Both the position numbers and the translations under genes were made by a program. DNA of 7,184 nucleotides from a virus. Lineage: Duplodnaviria > Heunggongvirae > Uroviricota > Caudoviricetes. Below are positions 1 to 7,184 of this stretch, piece by piece. The stretch is taken from positions 1 to 7,184 of IMG/VR virus record IMGVR_UViG_2681813320_000018. The stretch is one strand, 5' to 3'. The notes beneath the pieces are model-generated. The model was given only the letters and a program-made list of their open reading frames with translations, was not told the origin of the DNA and did not search any database. Every line of letters starts with the position of its first letter. Positions within the stretch are counted from its first letter, which is position 1.

Positions 1-20
1 GATTCAGGGGGTGACGTGTC

Positions 21-761
21 ATGAAAAACATTGCGGCAGTTGGGGTTCTTGAACGTATTCGCAGACTTGCACCACAGGGGTCGGTTCCACCGTACCGTAC
101 GGTGGCGGAGTGGCGGGAATGGCAGCTTGCTGAAGGGCGTAAGCGCAGCGAGGAGGTTAATCGTCTGAATCATCAGACGCGGGTTGAAAAAATTATTAAC
201 CGCTCCGGTATCCAGCTGCTTCACCGGAAGTGTACGTTCGGTAACTACCGGGTGCAGAACGATGGTCAGCGCCATGCCCTGAGTCAGGCGAAATCCATTG
301 CGGCAGAGCTGGAAGGCGGCTGTACGAATTTTGTTTTCAGTGGCAGGCCTGGCACAGGAAAAAACCACCTGGCGGCGGCTATTGGCAACCACCTTCTGGC
401 GAAAGGTCGCAGTGTGATTGTGATAACAGTGGCGGATGTGATGCTGGCGTTACATGGCAGCTACGACAACAAAAACTCGGGCGAAAAATTTTTGCAGGGA
501 TTGTGTGGCGTTGACCTGCTGGTACTGGATGAAATTGGCATGCAACGGGATACGCGTAATGAGCAGGTCACGCTGAATCAGATTGTTGACCGCAGAACGG
601 CATCGTTACTCAGTGTGGGGATGCTGACAAATCTTAACCATGCAGCGATGAATACACTTCTCGGCGAGCGGGTGATGGACCGCATGTCCATGAACGGTGG
701 TCGCTGGGTGACGTTTAACTGGGAGAGTTGGCGTCCGAACGTCAGCCAGCACAGGAACTGA
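21..761 (+). CDS. DnaC-like replicative helicase loader (phage replication protein, AAA+ DnaC/IstB family)
   Basis: 246-aa ORF from the track. Walker [16 protein letters not shown] and Walker B LLVLDEIG are in the order and spacing typical of DnaC and lambdoid DnaC-like proteins. SD-like CAGGGGG at 5-11 precedes ATG 21. Co-directional with the downstream phage genes. Confidence 0.85.
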
Positions 762-790
762 GAAGTAATTTTTATCCGGAGGAAGTTTTA

Positions 791-1561
791 ATGGAAACCG
801 TATTGCATGCACTGAAAGCGATGGGTAAAGCCAATTCTGTTGAACTGGCGGCGCGGCTTGATATCAGCCGTGAAGAAGTTCTCAACGAACTGTGGGAACT
901 CAAAGAAAATGGCGTTGTTGATAAAACGGGTCACACCTGGTTTCTGGCTGGTGAAGGTGAATCCGGGGTAACCGAAGAACAGCCAGCACAGTCTGAAGTA
1001 CCGGATGTGCTGACCGGGGAGGTCGAACAAAAAGTTACCGCGGACATGATGATTGAGTTTATCTGTCAGGATGGGGCTAAAACGTGTGAGGAACTGGCGG
1101 ATAAGTTCGGTGTTAGCATTCGCAAGGTTGCTTCCACGTTGGCGGTCGTAACAGCAACGGGGCGCCTGGCACGCGTAAATCAGAACGGTAAATTTCGTTA
1201 CTGCATGCCGGGCGATAATTTACCAGCAGAGCCGAAAGCCGCGCTGGTAACGGAAAGTGATGGTAAGGCCTTTCCTCAGCCAGCAGGTGCTGCGTTACCA
1301 GGCCGGGAAGCCGCAACACAGGAAGAAATTAAAACAGAAACTGTGGCGGACATTGTGCAGTCGTTGCCATCGTTTACCGAAACGCAAGCAGATGAGCTGA
1401 TTTTTCCGTCCCTGCGCAGGGCAAACCTGGCGCTGCGCAGGGCGAAAAGTGATGTTCAGAAGTGGGAGCGAGTCTGCGCCGCGCTGCGGGAGCTGAACAA
1501 GCACCGGGATATTGTTCGACAGATTACTGATTCTTCCCGCCGTGTTGTATCGGAAAAGTGA
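791..1561 (+). CDS. hypothetical prophage protein with two winged-helix-like repeats (nin-region-like)
   Basis: Track ORF 728-1561. Start moved to ATG 791 because GGAGG at 778-782 sits 8 nt upstream and the DnaC-like gene stops at 759-761. Two internally similar modules (..[30 protein letters not shown].. and ..[31 protein letters not shown]..) resemble wHTH DNA-binding domains. No specific family recognised. Confidence 0.6.
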
Positions 1562-1576
1562 TTGCCGGAGGCGCTT

Positions 1577-1999
1577 ATGGCAAAAGTATTTACACAAGAA
1601 GAGCGGGAAAAAATTAAGGGGCAGGTTGTTGAACTCGTGCGCCAGAATGGGCGCGAGACGTTACGACAACTTGAAGCTAAGACAGGTGCGACAAGATATT
1701 TAATGAGCGTTCTCGCCAGAGAGCTGGTTGCCAGTGGCGATGTATATAACTCCGGCTACGGGCTATTTCCCTCTGAACAGGCTCGTAAGGACTGGCAAAA
1801 CGCCCGCAAAAAACTCTCAAGGGCAAAGCTGAAGAAACCATCTGCGGTTGATCCGGACCTTATCTGGTCATTACCAGATGGCGAAATACGCCGCTACGAC
1901 AGGCGTCTGAACATAATCTGTCTCGAGTGCCGGAAGAGCGAAGTTATGCAGCGCGTACTGGCGTTTTATCAGGGGAATTTTGAGGAGGTGGTGCGGTGA
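1577..1999 (+). CDS. hypothetical prophage protein (single winged-helix-like module)
   Basis: Track ORF 1562-1999. Preferred start is ATG 1577, preceded by GGAGG at 1567-1571 (5-nt spacer). Contains a module (ETLRQLEAKTGATRYLMSVLARELVASGDV) similar to the two in the upstream gene. Stop TGA at 1997-1999 overlaps the next start. Confidence 0.6.
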   Translation: MAKVFTQEEREKIKGQVVELVRQNGRETLRQLEAKTGATRYLMSVLARELVASGDVYNSGYGLFPSEQARKDWQNARKKLSRAKLKKPSAVDPDLIWSLPDGEIRRYDRRLNIICLECRKSEVMQRVLAFYQGNFEEVVR

Positions 2000-2250
2000 G
2001 TGAATCAAAATGCCAGGTTAATGGCAACAAGATAGAACCATGTGCAGCACTGGCAAAGTCCCTTGAGCATGATGCTGAATACACGATGCGAAAAGGTCTG
2101 CTGATATACAAAATCTGGAATGAGAGTTTAACTCGCGGTCCTGATTTTGTGATGTTGCGTTCCGGTGAATTTTCTAAATTACCAGTTCGGGTTTCATTTT
2201 GTCCGTTCTGTGGTGAAAGTCTGAAAACGTGGGAGAACAGAAATGAATGA
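1996..2250 (+). CDS. hypothetical small prophage protein, possible zinc-ribbon (C-x2-C near C-terminus)
   Basis: 84-aa ORF. GTG start at 1996 overlaps the upstream stop (GTGA), with GAGGAGG at 1982-1988. Cys residues at positions 6, 16, 69 and 72 (CPFCGE). Translational coupling supports it as real. Confidence 0.5.
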   Translation: MSESKCQVNGNKIEPCAALAKSLEHDAEYTMRKGLLIYKIWNESLTRGPDFVMLRSGEFSKLPVRVSFCPFCGESLKTWENRNE

Positions 2251-2554
2251 AATTAAAGAAATACCAGTAGTACGTGATGAATATGGCTGCTGGACGCATC
2301 CTGAATATGAAAAATTCTGTGACGGTCGGGAATATATTTCAACGGAAGAGTTTAACGCCTGGATGGAGGAAAATAATCTTCAATACGTCCTCTGCTTCAG
2401 AGATGAAGGATGTGCTGACCTTGATGCGTGTGATGCTGATATTTCTGCATGGGAACCGGAACGACCAGAGGGCAATGGATGGTTTATTGGTTCAATACAT
2501 GACACCGAAGATGGCCCGGTTTGTGTATGGCTGAGAAATAAGGCCGAAGCATAA
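2243..2554 (+). CDS. hypothetical acidic small prophage protein
   Basis: 103-aa ORF. ATG 2243 overlaps the previous stop (ATGAATGA at 2243-2250). Acidic, Cys-containing, no recognised motif. Last gene before the composition drops. Confidence 0.55.
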   Translation: MNEIKEIPVVRDEYGCWTHPEYEKFCDGREYISTEEFNAWMEENNLQYVLCFRDEGCADLDACDADISAWEPERPEGNGWFIGSIHDTEDGPVCVWLRNKAEA

Positions 2555-2585
2555 AGGCTATAAACCGACTAACAACTAAATACTG

Positions 2586-2620
2586 AGGATTTAAATCAGA
2601 AACGATTTTTATTAAATCCT
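2586..2620. repeat. 9-bp perfect inverted repeat AGGATTTAA / TTAAATCCT with 17-bp spacer
   Basis: Read directly: aggatttaa at 2586-2594 and ttaaatcct at 2612-2620. Lies in the intergenic gap at the left edge of the AT-rich block, about 65 bp upstream of the Q-like gene start. Confidence 0.5.
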
Positions 2621-2686
2621 TAACCGGAGGGATTCCTGCACCCTCAAATCATCAGGAGGCCGCCAGAAAGGGCGGTGGAGATAATA

Positions 2687-3208
2687 ATGGGAATAACTAA
2701 AGAACGATTGTTGGAAATAGCAAACCTTAGTGATTGGGCATTAAGTGATGAGAGAATTGTTTCTCCTCATGCTTATGAGTCAGTTACAAGTATAGAAATA
2801 ACAACAATGGCTAGAATGCTGCTTGGTTATTTCAAAATAGAAAATAAAAAACAGATGGATAGTAATGTTGATATATGTGAGATTTTAGACGATTGGGGGG
2901 CTTGGGTTGTGGCTGGTAATAGTTCTATTGATTGGCAGGAAATAGCTGATAAATATAAAAATGTTGTTCCTCATGGTAAAAAATCACGTCGTCAGTGCAG
3001 CAATGATGAAGGGCGAATTATTGACATTAGTATCCTTAGGTTAGAAAGATATAAGCAACAAGAATATGAGTTAATTGTTGCTCATTTCGTGATTGGTTTA
3101 TCTCTTCGTGCTATTGCAAAGCAACAAGGATGTTCAGATGGAACAATTCGTAAAAGATTGCAAAAAGCCTTAGGTTTTTTGACTGGATATATAGCAATTA
3201 CCAGTTAA
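2687..3208 (+). CDS. Q-like antitermination protein homolog (QuuD/Phage_antitermQ-like C-terminal region) with ~60-aa N-terminal extension
   Basis: Track ORF 2675-3208. Preferred start is ATG 2687, with GGAG at 2677-2680 and a 6-nt spacer. Motifs DDWGAW, SRRQCSNDEG and HFVIGLSLRAIAKQQGCSDGTIRKRLQKALG match what I recall of E. coli cryptic-prophage Q proteins of the QuuD type (from memory). The C-terminal segment also resembles a sigma-70 region 4 / LuxR-type HTH. AT-rich like the adjacent operon. Confidence 0.55.
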   Translation: MGITKERLLEIANLSDWALSDERIVSPHAYESVTSIEITTMARMLLGYFKIENKKQMDSNVDICEILDDWGAWVVAGNSSIDWQEIADKYKNVVPHGKKSRRQCSNDEGRIIDISILRLERYKQQEYELIVAHFVIGLSLRAIAKQQGCSDGTIRKRLQKALGFLTGYIAITS

Positions 3209-3846
3209 GAGTCAGCGGTTTTTTTACCAGTGTAATGGTATAAGGATACTCCCATGTGTCTTACATGATATGGAAGCGCTGTTGCTGGATGCTTTGTGAT
3301 ACTCTTAAAGCGGAGGGGAGAGCCTTCCGCTTCAATTTCTGCGTCCGAAACGGTCGTAGAGAAAAATTCTTTCCATTCATTGAATTTTACTGCTGATTTG
3401 TCAGACTTTATATAAATTAGAATTCCTCCATGATCGTCACGTGACGTACCCGTGCCGTAACGTTCGGTTAGCTGAATCCAGCCATTATGAATAGATTTGG
3501 GGCCTCTCCATAATTTTGCTTCACCGATCCATTCGAATTTTCCGAATTGATGTTTAACTAATAAATCAACGTGACCGCCATGTTGAGTATCATGTTCAAC
3601 ATCATAAAACCTACCTTTCAGGAAATTTTTGATCGACGCTGTTAGCTCGTCCTCTCCCCACTTAGCATCTTGATAGAAGTGTTTGTCATTTTCTAAATTC
3701 TGAATAGCGTCGTCTAAATCTTCATAGAGTTGCTTTACAAAAATATTTTTGTCTGCAGCTAATTTTCTTTGAACCATTCCCCTAAATTCAGGATCCATTC
3801 TAATTAATGATTGAAGGTCTGCAGTACAGATGTTTACATCACTCAT
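3205..3846 (-). CDS. hypothetical protein, putative PD-(D/E)xK-type nuclease (third gene of minus-strand operon)
   Basis: Track ORF 3205-3909. Preferred start is ATG at 3846-3844, with GGAGAG 5 nt upstream on the - strand, overlapping the upstream gene's stop by 8 nt (ATGAGTGA). Motif YDVEHDTQHGGHVDLLVKHQFGKFEWIGEAK gives E83, D94, E109-x-K111, consistent with a restriction-endonuclease-like core. The 3' part of the gene (about 3205-3500) is nearer 52% GC while the 5' part is about 35%. Confidence 0.55.
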   Translation of the reverse strand: MSDVNICTADLQSLIRMDPEFRGMVQRKLAADKNIFVKQLYEDLDDAIQNLENDKHFYQDAKWGEDELTASIKNFLKGRFYDVEHDTQHGGHVDLLVKHQFGKFEWIGEAKLWRGPKSIHNGWIQLTERYGTGTSRDDHGGILIYIKSDKSAVKFNEWKEFFSTTVSDAEIEAEGSPLRFKSITKHPATALPYHVRHMGVSLYHYTGKKTADS

Positions 3847-4267
3847 GCAGACTCTCCAAAAGACTCGAAGGAGTAAAGTATGGATAAAGATACTGGCTAA
3901 AATTATCAACCAATTCGCCAGTTTCTGGATGGTAAAAACTTCCTGTGTCTAAAGCATAGGAAATAAGATCATCTTCAACTGGTATTGGTTCTTCCGTTAA
4001 ATTATCAATGTATTGAAAATGCATATCCAATAGATGTGCTTTATAGCTAGATAAATAATCAGTTGCTTTTATTAGCAGGATATAGTCATCTTTCGTATCA
4101 GTTAGATAGGTTAAACCATTGATAAGGGTTTTGTATGTAAAGTGATTGATATTTTTAGCATCTTTACTAACCAGAAAAAGAAAAAGATCACGACACACAC
4201 TGCGAACAGGATCATTAAAATCCTGCTCTATTTGCGTGATAATGTCGTGATATATACTCTTTTTCAT
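3839..4267 (-). CDS. hypothetical protein (142 aa), middle gene of minus-strand operon
   Basis: ATG at 4267-4265 overlaps the upstream gene's TGA (ATGA overlap). Its stop overlaps the next start. AT-rich coding with an acidic C-terminal half. No recognised motif. Confidence 0.55.
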   Translation of the reverse strand: MKKSIYHDIITQIEQDFNDPVRSVCRDLFLFLVSKDAKNINHFTYKTLINGLTYLTDTKDDYILLIKATDYLSSYKAHLLDMHFQYIDNLTEEPIPVEDDLISYALDTGSFYHPETGELVDNFSQYLYPYFTPSSLLESLHE

Positions 4268-5355
4268 TTATGGCCTGATGATCTCGCTCTTCTTTTCTCT
4301 TCACAGGACTTAACAGAATCCAATATTTTTTCAACAATAAATATAATCGAATCAATGTTGTTACAGTTCTTCGCAATTGCTTCATGCAACCTAATTCTAG
4401 GATTATCAAGCATTGTCCTTTTTCCTGGTAATATTAACTCTACTGATAAAATATGTGAAGAACTTTGTGGTAAATCCCAAATTTTTCCCAACTTAAACTT
4501 TGTCAATATTGGGCTTGCGGACTCTCCACTATGATGGTAAACATCTTGACGCAAACACTTTTGACTTGGTTTGAGTTTTAAAGAACTTGTATTGCCATCT
4601 GAGGTGATAAAAGATACATGAGAAATTCTGCCATCTACTTTTTCGTAAAGATCTTGTATTGAACCAAATAATTCAAGAGGATTGTTTAAAATAACGCCAG
4701 CTTCTTTTTTTATAAATTTAGCCACAAGGTATTGTTGAGGCTGTGATTCACTTCTTGGAAGGATAGATAAATCAATCGTAAGAATTAATATTTTTTCTGC
4801 AGGCATTAGCATGATGGTATTAAAGCATTGCGTGACTTGGCGTGTTTTGCATTTTATTTCTCCACCATTAGCACGTAATTCCATACCCGCATCGCTAAGA
4901 TGTGTTGGGTCAAGCTCTATCACTTCAGTGTAATACGCTTTGGATAAAAAAACAGCAGTGTCAATTTGTTTATCACGAATGATATCTTGACGTAGTTCAG
5001 CAAAATGCAGCTCAGTATCAGCAACTAACAGCTCCTCTCTGGATAAAGGAGTTGGGTATTTTTCTGAGAAGGGGCTATTGTCCTTTTTCTGATTTGTGAA
5101 AATTGTTTGTAATTTTGCTACGTCTTCATCGGTGATTCTATAAATAGAAAGTAATCGATTCCCGCTAAAAATTAAACCTTTCCAGAAATCGTCGATTCTG
5201 TCTTTTAGGTCGGGATTATGCTGAACTACACTATTTACACGTTCAATAAAAAGGGGTAATCCTTGGGCCGTTACACCCAGTGATGAACCAAGAAGCTTAC
5301 GGGTGTTGCGCCAGCCAAAGCGTGAATTGATGTTTTTTACTGTTTGCTCAAGCAT
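4264..5355 (-). CDS. hypothetical protein (363 aa), first gene of minus-strand operon
   Basis: Track ORF 4264-5361 begins at a GTG. Preferred start is ATG at 5355-5353, preceded on the - strand by AAGGAAG (5-nt spacer). Long uninterrupted AT-rich ORF. No Walker A/P-loop found on manual scan and no family recognised. Confidence 0.65.
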   Translation of the reverse strand: MLEQTVKNINSRFGWRNTRKLLGSSLGVTAQGLPLFIERVNSVVQHNPDLKDRIDDFWKGLIFSGNRLLSIYRITDEDVAKLQTIFTNQKKDNSPFSEKYPTPLSREELLVADTELHFAELRQDIIRDKQIDTAVFLSKAYYTEVIELDPTHLSDAGMELRANGGEIKCKTRQVTQCFNTIMLMPAEKILILTIDLSILPRSESQPQQYLVAKFIKKEAGVILNNPLELFGSIQDLYEKVDGRISHVSFITSDGNTSSLKLKPSQKCLRQDVYHHSGESASPILTKFKLGKIWDLPQSSSHILSVELILPGKRTMLDNPRIRLHEAIAKNCNNIDSIIFIVEKILDSVKSCEEKRRARSSGHK

Positions 5356-5400
5356 TAACACTTCCTTAATTTTCCCTTAACAATTTAGGGTGCTAAACTT

Positions 5401-5440
5401 TTTTGCGCAGTTTACATAAAAAAATAGTGCGTACGCAAAA
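5401..5440. promoter_or_regulatory. operator-like dyad: 10-bp perfect palindrome TGCGTACGCA inside an imperfect 9-bp inverted repeat (TTTTGCGCA ... TACGCAAAA)
   Basis: Read directly: tgcgtacgca at 5428-5437 is self-complementary; arms at 5401-5409 and 5432-5440 match 8 of 9. Located 45-85 bp upstream of the minus-strand operon start, in the AT-rich divergent intergenic region. Function is inferred. Confidence 0.3.
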
Positions 5441-5496
5441 ACTATCTAACATGATGAGCTTTAACCGGGAAATTTGTATATGTTGTGAGCATAAAG

Positions 5497-5525
5497 TTGG
5501 CTGAGAAATCTAAAACGGGTAGAAT
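5497..5525 (+). promoter_or_regulatory. candidate sigma-70 promoter for the hok-family transcript (-35 TTGGCT, 17-bp spacer, -10 TAGAAT)
   Basis: TTGGCT at 5497-5502 and TAGAAT at 5520-5525 with a 17-bp spacer. Predicted start near 5532 gives a leader of about 170 nt before the hok ATG, in line with the long structured leaders of hok-family mRNAs. Confidence 0.3.
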
Positions 5526-5701
5526 GACTGCGGGTGCTTGAGGCTATCTGTCTCAGGCATGAACACCAAAAGGCAGATAGAGAAAAGCCCCAGTTAACAT
5601 TACGCGTCCGGCAAGACGCTTAACATTAATCTGAGGCCATATCTATGCTCTACACACGTAGGTTAGCCTCTTACGTGCCGAAAGGCAAGGAGAAGCAGGC
5701 T

Positions 5702-5857
5702 ATGAAGCAGCAAAAGGCGATGTTAATCGCCCTGATCGTCATCTGTTTAACCGTCATAGTGACGGCACTGGTAACGAGGAAAGACCTCTGCGAGGTACGA
5801 ATCCGAACCGGCCAGACGGAGGTCGCTGTCTTCACAGCTTACGAACCTGAGGAGTAA
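5702..5857 (+). CDS. hokD: Hok/Gef-family type I toxin (HokD/RelF-like, 51 aa)
   Basis: MKQQKAMLIALIVICLTVIVTALVTRKDLCEVRIRTGQTEVAVFTAYEPEE carries the Hok-family signature (hydrophobic TM helix, LVTRKDLCE, TGQTEVAVFTAYE) and matches my recollection of E. coli HokD (unverified). GGAG at 5690-5693 precedes ATG 5702. The track ORF starts at an in-frame upstream ATG 5645, judged not the toxin start. Confidence 0.85.
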   Translation: MKQQKAMLIALIVICLTVIVTALVTRKDLCEVRIRTGQTEVAVFTAYEPEE

Positions 5858-5927
5858 GAGACCTGGCGGGGGAGAAATCCCTCGCCACCTCTGATGTGTC
5901 AGGCATCCTCAACGCACCCGCACTTAA

Positions 5928-5953
5928 CCCGCTTCGGCGGGTTTTGTTTTTTT
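5928..5953 (+). terminator. rho-independent terminator (CCCGC-UUCG-GCGGG stem-loop plus U-tract)
   Basis: Perfect 5-bp GC stem at 5928-5932 and 5937-5941 with a UUCG tetraloop, followed by TTTTGTTTTTTT at 5942-5953. Lies 70 nt downstream of the hok stop. Confidence 0.7.
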
Positions 5954-6024
5954 CTGGCATTCTGGTTTACAATTCGCACGTCAGCCTGAACACCTGACAC
6001 CTGCTGCGCCAGCAGAGAAAACAG

Positions 6025-6297
6025 ATGGCGCACAAAACCAAATTTCACAATTCTGATACCGACCTTGCCATCCGGCATGGGCGGCGTTCACACGCATTTA
6101 AAACCGACTGGTACCAACACCCACCATGTACTGAAGAACAGGCCGAATGGCTAATTCATAACTACCGCAGACGCGGATACGAGATTAAGAAAGCCCTCAG
6201 CCTCGATTATCGTCACTGGATAATCTCCGTCAGGCTTCCTTACTCTGAACGCCCACCGCGTCCGTCCCGCACATTCCAGCAACGCATCTGGAGGTAA
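6025..6297 (+). CDS. hypothetical small prophage protein (rem-like by position between hok and the DUF968-like gene)
   Basis: 90-aa ORF starting at ATG 6025 with a weak purine-rich SD. Basic, Arg-rich. Assigned as rem-like only because E. coli K-12 Qin has the order hokD-rem-ydfU (from memory). Its stop at 6295-6297 abuts the next gene's GTG. Confidence 0.55.
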   Translation: MAHKTKFHNSDTDLAIRHGRRSHAFKTDWYQHPPCTEEQAEWLIHNYRRRGYEIKKALSLDYRHWIISVRLPYSERPPRPSRTFQQRIWR

Positions 6298-6298
6298 C

Positions 6299-7184
6299 GT
6301 GCGGGTATTACTTCGACCTGTTCTGGTACCGGAACTCGGGCTGGTGATCGTTAAGCCGGGCCGTGAATCCATGCCGGTATTCCACAATACCCGGGTACTG
6401 GTGGAGCCGGAACCGAAAAGCATGCGTAATCTGCCGTCCGGGGTCGTTCCTGCCGTTCGCCAGCCGCTGGCGGAGGATAAATCATTACTGCCATTTTTCA
6501 GCGACGAACGAGTGATTCGTGCTGCTGGTGGCGCTGGCGCATTGTCTGACTGGTTACTGCGCCATGTTAAATCCTGCCAGTGGCCACACGGCGATTATCA
6601 CCACAGTGAAACCGTCATTCACCGTTATGGTACCGGCGCAATGGTGTTGTGCTGGCACTGCGACAACCAGCTGCGCGACCAGACCTCCGAATCACTCGGG
6701 CAACTTGCTCACCAAAACCTGTCTGCATGGATGATTGACGTCATACGCCATGCAATGAATGGCTCGCAGGAACGGGAATTATCGCTGGCTGAATTATCCT
6801 GGTGGGCGGTCCGCAATCAGGTGGCGGACGCGCTACCGGAAGCGGTATTACGTCGTTCGCTGGGGTTGCGTGCGGAAAAAATCCGCTCAATGTACCGTGA
6901 AAGCGACATCGTACCGGGAGAGCAGACCGCCACCAGCATACTGAAGCAGCGCACAAAAAATCTTGCGCCGCTGCCTCACGCCCACCAGCAAAACCCGCCA
7001 CAGGAAGAGACGGTGGTCAGCATTGCCGTTGATCCTGAGTCTCCGGAATCTTTCATGAAACGACCTAAACGTCGCCGCTGGGTTAACGAGAAATACACAC
7101 GCTGGGTGAAGACACAGCCGTGTGCGTGTTGTGGTAAGCCAGCCGACGATCCCCATCACCTGATTGGTCATGGTCAGGGCGGAA
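6299..7184 (+). CDS. YdfU/DUF968-like prophage protein, 3'-truncated by window end
   Basis: Frame translated by hand from GTG 6299 to 7184 without a stop (295 codons), so the track omits it. GGAGG at 6290-6294 precedes GTG 6299; alternative starts are ATG 6371 or 6422. C-terminal visible part has C-A-C-C-G-K-x5-P-H-H-L-I-G-H-G, a Cys/His cluster suggesting a zinc-binding or HNH-like module. Several track ORFs here overlap it on other frames and strands. Confidence 0.6.
   Translation, partial: MRVLLRPVLVPELGLVIVKPGRESMPVFHNTRVLVEPEPKSMRNLPSGVVPAVRQPLAEDKSLLPFFSDERVIRAAGGAGALSDWLLRHVKSCQWPHGDYHHSETVIHRYGTGAMVLCWHCDNQLRDQTSESLGQLAHQNLSAWMIDVIRHAMNGSQERELSLAELSWWAVRNQVADALPEAVLRRSLGLRAEKIRSMYRESDIVPGEQTATSILKQRTKNLAPLPHAHQQNPPQEETVVSIAVDPESPESFMKRPKRRRWVNEKYTRWVKTQPCACCGKPADDPHHLIGHGQGG

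Follow-up and report, generated by a model that had tools for sequence, protein, structure and literature searches.

Introduction

The anti-phage unit DS-21 was reported in the DefensePredictor study as TOXO, a validated transcription unit that encodes three hypothetical proteins over 2159 bp (DeWeirdt, Mahoney & Laub, Science 2026, PMC13092281, Table S6), with the accessions WP_001532221, WP_021552536, and WP_001557682 (PMC13092281, Tables S6 and S8). For that study, each unit was placed on a low-copy plasmid under its native promoter, and E. coli MG1655 carrying it was challenged with 24 phages (PMC13092281). TOXO reduced the log10 efficiency of plating (EOP) by 4.48 for Bas1 and by 2.0 for Bas11, with smaller, flagged effects on Bas3, Bas9, Bas67, and T3 (PMC13092281, Table S7); we tentatively take the "Y" flag in that table to denote smaller plaques, which the table itself does not say. 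The unit is marked as defensive (TRUE) and replicated (TRUE) and receives no individual discussion in the main text (PMC13092281), and we found no later literature that mentions DS-21. Here, we describe a trio of minus-strand genes, called A, B, and C, in a 7,184-nucleotide (nt) stretch of DNA from a Caudoviricetes virus (IMG/VR record IMGVR_UViG_2681813320_000018, positions 1 to 7,184), which we refer to at its full length as the window, and we compare the trio with DS-21 and with other described defense systems.

Those other systems differ from the trio in their parts. The trio lacks a helicase such as HamB of Hachiman HamAB, an SMC-like ATPase such as LmuB of Lamassu, and a fused sensor domain like that of SduA in Shedu, and the PADLOC models for Shedu, Hachiman, and Lamassu match none of A, B, and C. 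It likewise has neither the partner helicase or ABC ATPase of Gabija- and Septu-type systems nor the cognate methyltransferase of type II restriction-modification (R-M) systems. The original prediction, which a model had made from the letters of the window and a list of its open reading frames (ORFs), had set the trio apart from Septu, Gabija, Lamassu, and R-M systems, and this separation holds, with neither a nucleoside triphosphatase (NTPase) nor a cognate methyltransferase found.

Relationship of the trio to DS-21

When the window proteins were compared with those of DS-21 by BLASTP, each matched over its full length, at 51% identity for A (E 5e-141), 54% for B (E 2e-48), and 60% for C (E 6e-93). 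The two trios are also alike in protein length (363, 142, and 213 amino acids [aa] in the window and 365, 140, and 211 aa in DS-21), in gene order, and in the common direction of all three genes. The catalytic residues of C are identical, and both trios sit in a lambdoid prophage, where they are convergent with, and overlap, a Q-family antiterminator gene (PF06530). In E. coli A17, RefSeq assigns precisely the three DS-21 accessions to genes between a Q gene and a holin gene, and the sequences printed in Table S8 agree with these three RefSeq proteins. According to a distant-mode search, the DS-21 variant is present in 12 complete E. coli genomes, and the DS-21 length of 2159 bp is that of the Salmonella trio.

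On the other hand, the window DNA is only ~66% identical to DS-21 over 58% of its length and represents a separate sequence subtype. In E. coli A17, A and B are separated by a gap of +10 nt and B and C overlap by 8 nt, whereas the window has overlaps of 4 nt and 8 nt. Upstream of the window trio, we found hok/sok in place of the holin gene and putative late-promoter region of DS-21, and the two upstream regions are unrelated. The prophage position of the window trio differs as well, since the lysis genes and another Q gene lie further downstream. Together, every feature of family membership that could be compared agrees, and judged by its sequence, the window trio is an orthologous subtype of the DS-21 family.

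The anti-phage function put forward in the original prediction gains support from this full-length three-gene ortholog, which has the same gene order and was validated in E. coli MG1655, where its native promoter drives expression and some Drexlerviridae phages are held off. What did not stand was its description of the system as undescribed, since the family has had a name and a publication since April 2026 and is missing only from older libraries, namely PADLOC 2023 and Pfam. Identification as DS-21 type would not surprise a specialist. It does mean that a reader of the sequence alone correctly flagged a defense system that is still "hypothetical" in Pfam, NCBIfam, PADLOC 2023, and RefSeq annotation. 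As a whole, the trio is probably best explained as a three-gene anti-phage system of the DS-21 family, without NTPase or methyltransferase and carried by prophages, plasmids, and islands, in which A would serve as sensor, B as adaptor, and C as DNase.

Architecture of the operon

The three genes are tightly coupled. Read directly, A ends in GGC CAT AAA TGA, which contains the ATG of B and gives an ATGA overlap at 4264-4267, while B ends in CTG CAT GAG TGA and C starts with ATG AGT GAT, giving the 8-nt overlap ATGAGTGA at 3839-3846. At its maximal span, the ORF of A covers 4264-5361 (365 aa from a GTG), or 363 aa if translation starts with the ATG at 5355, and that of C covers 3205-3909 (234 aa from a TTG), with 213 aa from the ATG at 3846. 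Shine-Dalgarno-like sequences lie 5 nt before both of these ATG codons (AAGGAAG before 5355 and GGAGAG before 3846), and we therefore favor the starts at 5355 and 3846. RefSeq/PGAP calls C as a protein of 197 aa from a later ATG at 3798, where direct reading finds no ribosome-binding site, and the 213-aa and 197-aa versions co-occur within one cluster of a large protein collection. We favor the 213-aa version because the family alignment of C is conserved from residue 1 and through the first 16 residues, because its start has a ribosome-binding site, and because an overlap of B and C (-1 to -8 nt) is also present at 8 of 11 other loci that were measured, or 9 of 12 with the window.

The G+C fraction of the trio is 0.365, compared to 0.50 in the left flank and 0.55 in the right flank. 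In 1000 shuffles of the segment, the longest stop-free run had a mean of 75 codons and a maximum of 168, against the 363 observed. Direct reading and composition thus bear out the AT-rich set of three overlapping minus-strand ORFs (363, 142, and 213 aa) from which the original prediction had started.

Database searches placed none of the three proteins in a described family. A, B, and C have no match in Pfam, NCBIfam, or PDB sequences, and the best that PADLOC-DB 2.0.0 (2023) gave was an unusable match, at 16 bits, between the motif region of C and the candidate family PDC-S54. Scans with the family alignments were equally unproductive. PADLOC, Pfam, and NCBIfam detected no domain of an ATPase, helicase, methyltransferase, or reverse transcriptase in the three proteins, in agreement with what had been read from the letters. 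Scans of 34 diverse, distant members of the A family were likewise without a Pfam, PADLOC, or PDB match, and no NTPase was found with PADLOC and Pfam in A, B, C, or these 34 members. PHROGs assigns the three proteins to three families without a known function. Among phage genomes, megablast with the trio found no match, and tblastn with A found only two weak matches, both in Acinetobacter phages.

Conservation and mobility of the trio

Thirteen further loci share this gene order and close spacing. They lie on prophages, islands, and plasmids, and their sources range from Enterobacteria to Calothrix, where the copy is on a plasmid; homology of all three parts was confirmed with profiles. The order A-B-C is kept in every three-gene locus examined, with B homologs always between A and C and with gaps between neighboring genes of -20 to +17 nt. 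Recurrence of the genes as a unit had been named as a check on the proposed defense function, and the trio does recur, on prophages, integrative islands, plasmids, and a defense island.

The breadth of the family depends on the search. A word-indexed search returned 32 clusters of A, all from Enterobacterales, and 45 clusters of C, which reach Vibrio, Shewanella, and Photobacterium, and an exhaustive profile search put family A at 505 representatives (clusters at 50% identity), nearly all of ~350 aa. A scan of species-representative genomes found a single locus; it used two short peptide patterns and has little bearing on true breadth. Thus, the DS-21 family is much larger and wider than its single validated example suggests, with 505 clusters at 50% identity and members in Vibrio, Shewanella, Pseudomonas, and a cyanobacterial plasmid, in each case as the full trio.

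Among 5426 complete E. coli genomes, 26 carry the trio, 14 with the window type and 12 with the DS-21 variant. The 14 match the 2151-bp segment at 99.5-100% identity and include enteropathogenic E. coli (EPEC) E2348/69 and an O145 strain, and all three genes are annotated as "hypothetical protein" in these matching genomes. The trio can now be annotated as DS-21-type defense in EPEC E2348/69, in O145 and other Shiga toxin-producing E. coli (STEC) strains, and in many Salmonella prophages.

One locus, L014, carries a two-gene variant in which a 423-aa protein is followed directly by a C homolog. The C-terminal ~80 residues of this protein match the B profile (E 7e-11), while its N-terminal ~340 residues are unrelated to A. 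Since an unrelated N terminus is here fused to a B-like domain upstream of C, the sequences suggest that B and C form the core of the system and that the "sensor" part is exchangeable.

No methyltransferase or other self-protection gene was found as a conserved partner in any trio locus examined, and the 14 loci hold neither a modification-reader domain (SRA, YTH, Mrr-N, and similar) nor a McrB-like GTPase/ATPase motor. The type I R-M genes beside the trio at L022 are a neighboring, separate system.

Protein C

The structure model of C is confident, with a predicted local distance difference test (pLDDT) score of 91.6, and consists of an N-terminal helical region and a PD-(D/E)XK core that is BamHI/BstYI-like. 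Its closest folds are the type II restriction enzymes BstYI, BamHI, OkrAI, and BglII, together with McrC, and further structural neighbors are the CdiA-CT DNase toxin and NucC and Can2, which are effector nucleases of abortive systems. E65, D94, E109, K111, and Q125 are invariant in 27 C homologs, and in 13 sequences that span E. coli to Calothrix and include Pseudomonas, the invariant residues are E65, D66, H85, H92, D94, E109, K111, and Q125. On the basis of fold and invariant motif, C is a predicted PD-(D/E)XK nuclease with an intact predicted active site. A nuclease-like signature at D94, E109, and K111 had been noticed in the third protein from the letters alone; these were the right residues, invariant across the family and set in a model with a restriction enzyme-like fold.

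Sequence searches placed C less directly. Window C has no match in Pfam or in the NCBIfam superfamily models, and one of the 27 members matches PDDEXK_9 at E 0.026. For DS-21C, the published annotation gives an HHpred match to a DpnII/MboI-type PD-(D/E)XK domain (PF18742, 0.96; PMC13092281, Table S8) and ties the protein by HHblits to the PDDEXK effector LmuA of Lamassu (PMC13092281). The core of C shares its fold with BamHI, BglII, and BstYI but differs from these type II enzymes in being only 8-14% identical in sequence, in having no cognate methyltransferase at any trio locus, and in possessing a conserved 60-residue helical N-terminal extension and the partners A and B. Matches of the C profile to Rab GTPases were rejected as chance, as they involve a non-catalytic stretch at E 0.007 or worse.

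Protein A

In the model of A (pLDDT 81; predicted template-modeling score, pTM, 0.79), four helices form an N-terminal domain, which is followed by an alpha/beta body and, at the C terminus, a long helix. Foldseek returned only three significant matches, all of them RdgC chains (E 2e-5 to 4e-5, probability 1.0, ~350 columns). RdgC, a recombination- and nucleoid-associated protein, dimerizes into a ring (toroid), binds DNA irrespective of its sequence, and modulates RecA. The likeness of A to E. coli RdgC (PDB 2OWL/2OWY) lies in the three-dimensional fold of the model; on the other hand, low global similarity indicates that the domains of A are arranged differently, and A adds the N-terminal four-helix domain and the long C-terminal helix. 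None of the 34 diverse A members has a Pfam match to the RdgC family (PF04381). Taken together, A appears from its model to be RdgC-like in fold and not a member of the RdgC family. We know of no RdgC-like sensor fold described for Shedu, Hachiman, or Lamassu.

A resemblance to RdgC is mentioned neither in the main text nor in the part of Table S8 examined (PMC13092281). Table S8 gives an HHpred match of DS-21A to a weak HeH/SAP motif at residues 16-48 (0.64; PMC13092281). Since HeH/SAP is likewise a DNA-binding motif, we count this weak match in favor of DNA binding by A. If the model is correct, the RdgC-like fold of DS-21A gives a specific and testable lead on how a validated system works. 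DS-21 itself is already described; the breadth of its family and the RdgC-like sensor candidate are useful leads.

The most conserved block of A lies at residues ~240-295 (window ~4471-4638) and reads DGR.S..SF.T.DGN.SSLKLKP...CLR.D.YHHGGE.ASPILTK.KLGK.WD. It may act as a flexible loop of functional importance or as a surface for interactions.

Protein B and the proposed mechanism

Protein B has a conserved YHPxTGE motif and no family match at the level of HMMER, known antitoxin families included. Table S8 gives HHpred matches of DS-21B to DUF5939 (0.94) and to a winged helix (0.8; PMC13092281). Because B and C overlap by 1-8 nt in 9 of 12 loci and a B-like domain is fused to a larger protein upstream of C at L014, we propose that B acts between A and the nuclease, as an adaptor or a regulator.

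Joined together, these parts suggest how the system might work. A would be a DNA-binding sensor or loader that recognizes something specific to infection, and its favored target would be free DNA ends or replication or recombination intermediates of the incoming phage. B would be produced in fixed proportion with C and would link C to A; in addition, it may keep C in check while the cell is uninfected. After A engages, C would cut DNA and halt phage replication. This scheme refines the arrangement of sensor, modulator, and effector in the original prediction, which is a reasonable one, by giving A a predicted RdgC-like DNA-binding fold, B the likely part of an adaptor, and C that of the proposed effector. 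A more specific version, which we regard as somewhat unlikely as it stands, has A acting as an RdgC-like toroidal clamp that threads onto the free ends or recombination intermediates of phage DNA, with the small winged-helix adaptor B licensing the BamHI-like C on that DNA only; this would be a new mechanistic class, and the phage range of the window subtype would differ from that of DS-21.

Several observations weigh against a DS-21-type system with A as its sensor. The likeness of A to RdgC is at the level of the fold only, with global template-modeling (TM) scores of 0.30-0.37 and a high root-mean-square deviation, and hhalign of the A-family profile against E. coli RdgC gave a probability of 0.1. 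The most conserved block of A overlaps residues 269-286, the only stretch of the model with very low confidence (pLDDT below 50). A consensus scan of 5356-5531 found no strong minus-strand sigma-70 site upstream of A. Nuclease activity, DNA binding by A, and contacts among A, B, and C are all predictions. The 40-50% divergence of the window copy from DS-21 could change or abolish specificity, and the spectrum of DS-21 is narrow, with 2 of 24 phages clearly affected, which a generic sensor of DNA ends does not obviously predict.

A possible alternative, if a tentative one, is abortive infection by a toxin-antitoxin pair, in which C is an indiscriminate DNase toxin held by the antitoxin B. Infection, acting through A or through the loss of labile B, would free C, and host and phage DNA would be destroyed so that the cell dies before phage release. 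The small size and acidity of B (pI 4.6) and its position directly upstream of and overlapping C match the usual layout of type II antitoxin and toxin genes, and the lack of a methyltransferase or other self-protection gene at any locus and the presence of CdiA-CT, NucC, and Can2 among the structural neighbors of C point the same way. However, B matches no known antitoxin family, and the fusion of a B-like domain to a large protein at L014 suits an adaptor better than a labile antitoxin. The 4.5-log drop in EOP is compatible with either mode.

It is improbable that the trio is instead a solitary restriction enzyme, either type IV-like or independent of a methylase, in which C is specific for a sequence or modification, A and B are its DNA-recognition subunits, and DNA is cut directly without the sensing of infection. 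The restriction enzymes and McrC among the closest folds of C, and the match of DS-21C to the DpnII/MboI restriction enzyme family in the published annotation (PMC13092281), would agree with such an enzyme. The same is true of the lack of a linked methyltransferase, and a narrow phage spectrum would fit a specific DNA feature. However, none of the 14 loci offers a modification reader or a McrB-like motor, and the predicted fold of A points to non-specific DNA binding of the RdgC kind and to no known specificity domain. To our knowledge, the strongly affected Bas1 and Bas11 are ordinary T1-like phages whose DNA is not hypermodified, which also counts against a solitary restriction enzyme.

A role in the phage life cycle, with an RdgC-like anti-RecA or recombination modulator and a structure-specific nuclease acting like the nin genes rusA, ninG, and rap and with defense as an incidental effect, is very improbable: although the trio lies in a nin-like region with DUF968 and RusA genes downstream, RdgC modulates RecA, and many PD-(D/E)XK proteins are recombination nucleases, the trio opposes the surrounding phage transcription with a foreign composition, is rare among complete E. 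coli genomes (26 of 5426), has copies outside phages (on plasmids, in integrative islands, and beside R-M systems), and has an ortholog that, when carried on a plasmid and thus outside any prophage context, protects MG1655.

Prophage setting and neighboring genes

Within its lambdoid prophage, the trio is flanked by a Q-family antiterminator gene on one side and by hok/sok on the other (Table 1). It is transcribed against the surrounding phage genes and is foreign to them in composition. In EPEC E2348/69, it lies within a lambdoid prophage integrated beside ompW. A prophage slot next to a hok toxin, as originally proposed, is thus confirmed by the Rfam sok match, the Pfam Hok/gef match, and the lambdoid prophage itself. 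As the divergent hok/sok module adjoins A, the promoter of the trio must lie in the ~180-290 bp shared with the hok/sok control region.

In the window and in every enterobacterial prophage copy, the Q gene and C share 4-25 bp at their 3' ends. The window Q gene matches the trio in AT-richness (G+C fraction 0.345), and E2348/69 has a second Q gene further downstream that adjoins the lysis genes. Given the equal AT-richness and this second Q gene, Q and the trio may have been imported as one block, and the window copy of Q is possibly redundant.

In the DS-21-type prophage loci, 300 bp lie between A and the holin gene (5683-6000 in E. coli A17, L018, with equivalents in L003 and L002) and contain a conserved block of ~60 bp and, on the holin strand, a terminator-like hairpin (5834-5855 in L018). 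The block and hairpin look like a late promoter and tR' region, and the trio would consequently sit between Q and its target promoter. We had considered that Q-dependent antisense late transcription silences the trio on induction and dropped this idea, since in the DS-21 loci the hairpin and block suggest a late promoter beyond the trio.

Table 1. Genes and neighboring features of the window, with related copies at other loci.
Feature	Locus	Coordinates	Strand	Details
Gene A	Window	4264-5355	Minus	363 aa, pI 8.8; ORF reading, ortholog of DS-21A
Gene B	Window	3839-4267	Minus	142 aa, acidic, pI 4.6; ortholog of DS-21B
Gene C	Window	3205-3846	Minus	213 aa; ortholog of DS-21C
Upstream non-coding region	Window	5356-5531	Minus	Contains the ribosome-binding site for A and, presumably, the trio's own promoter; ends where Rfam sok/hok match starts (5532)
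Q-family antiterminator (PF06530)	Window	2675-3208	Plus	Pfam Phage_antitermQ E 9e-32; G+C fraction 0.345; convergent with C, 3' ends overlap by 4 bases
hok/sok (hokD) type I toxin-antitoxin module	Window	5532-5857	Plus	Complete, divergent from A; Rfam sok RF01794, 117 bits over 5532-5707; Pfam Hok/gef ORF end 5857
Strong terminator-like hairpin	Window	5926-5943	Plus	Just past Hok/gef ORF
DnaC/IstB-like ATPase	Window	21-761	Plus
DUF1627 helix-turn-helix protein	Window	728-1561	Plus
DUF977	Window	1562-1999	Plus
Small ORF	Window	1996-2250	Plus	No family match
Small ORF	Window	2243-2554	Plus	No family match
Q gene (PF06530)	L018	8135-8524		Convergent with C
Q gene (PF06530)	L003	10156-10524		Convergent with C
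Q gene (PF06530)	L002	10139-10507		Convergent with C
Trio	L002			Enterobacter prophage; between Q gene and holin gene, opposite strand
Trio	L003-L006			Salmonella prophages; between Q gene and holin gene, opposite strand
Trio	L018			E. coli A17 prophage; between Q gene and holin gene, opposite strand
Trio	L007			Shewanella island copy
Trio	L009			Vibrio island copy
Trio	L012			Metagenomic phage copy
Trio	L016, L020, L027			Metagenomic loci
Trio	L022	1-8131		Adjoins type I R-M HsdM/HsdS, NucS-like/DUF5655 gene, radical SAM gene, and integrase
Trio	L024	1905-5696		Pseudomonas plasmid copy beside AbiEi
Trio	L025			Calothrix (cyanobacterial) plasmid copy
Trio	L026	2124-3450		Beside BrnT/BrnA; gene A apparently split into 286-aa and 109-aa ORFs
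Two-gene variant	L014	4743-6630		423-aa protein, then C homolog directly

The plus-strand genes at 21-2554, on the left of the window, form an ordinary lambdoid replication and early region.

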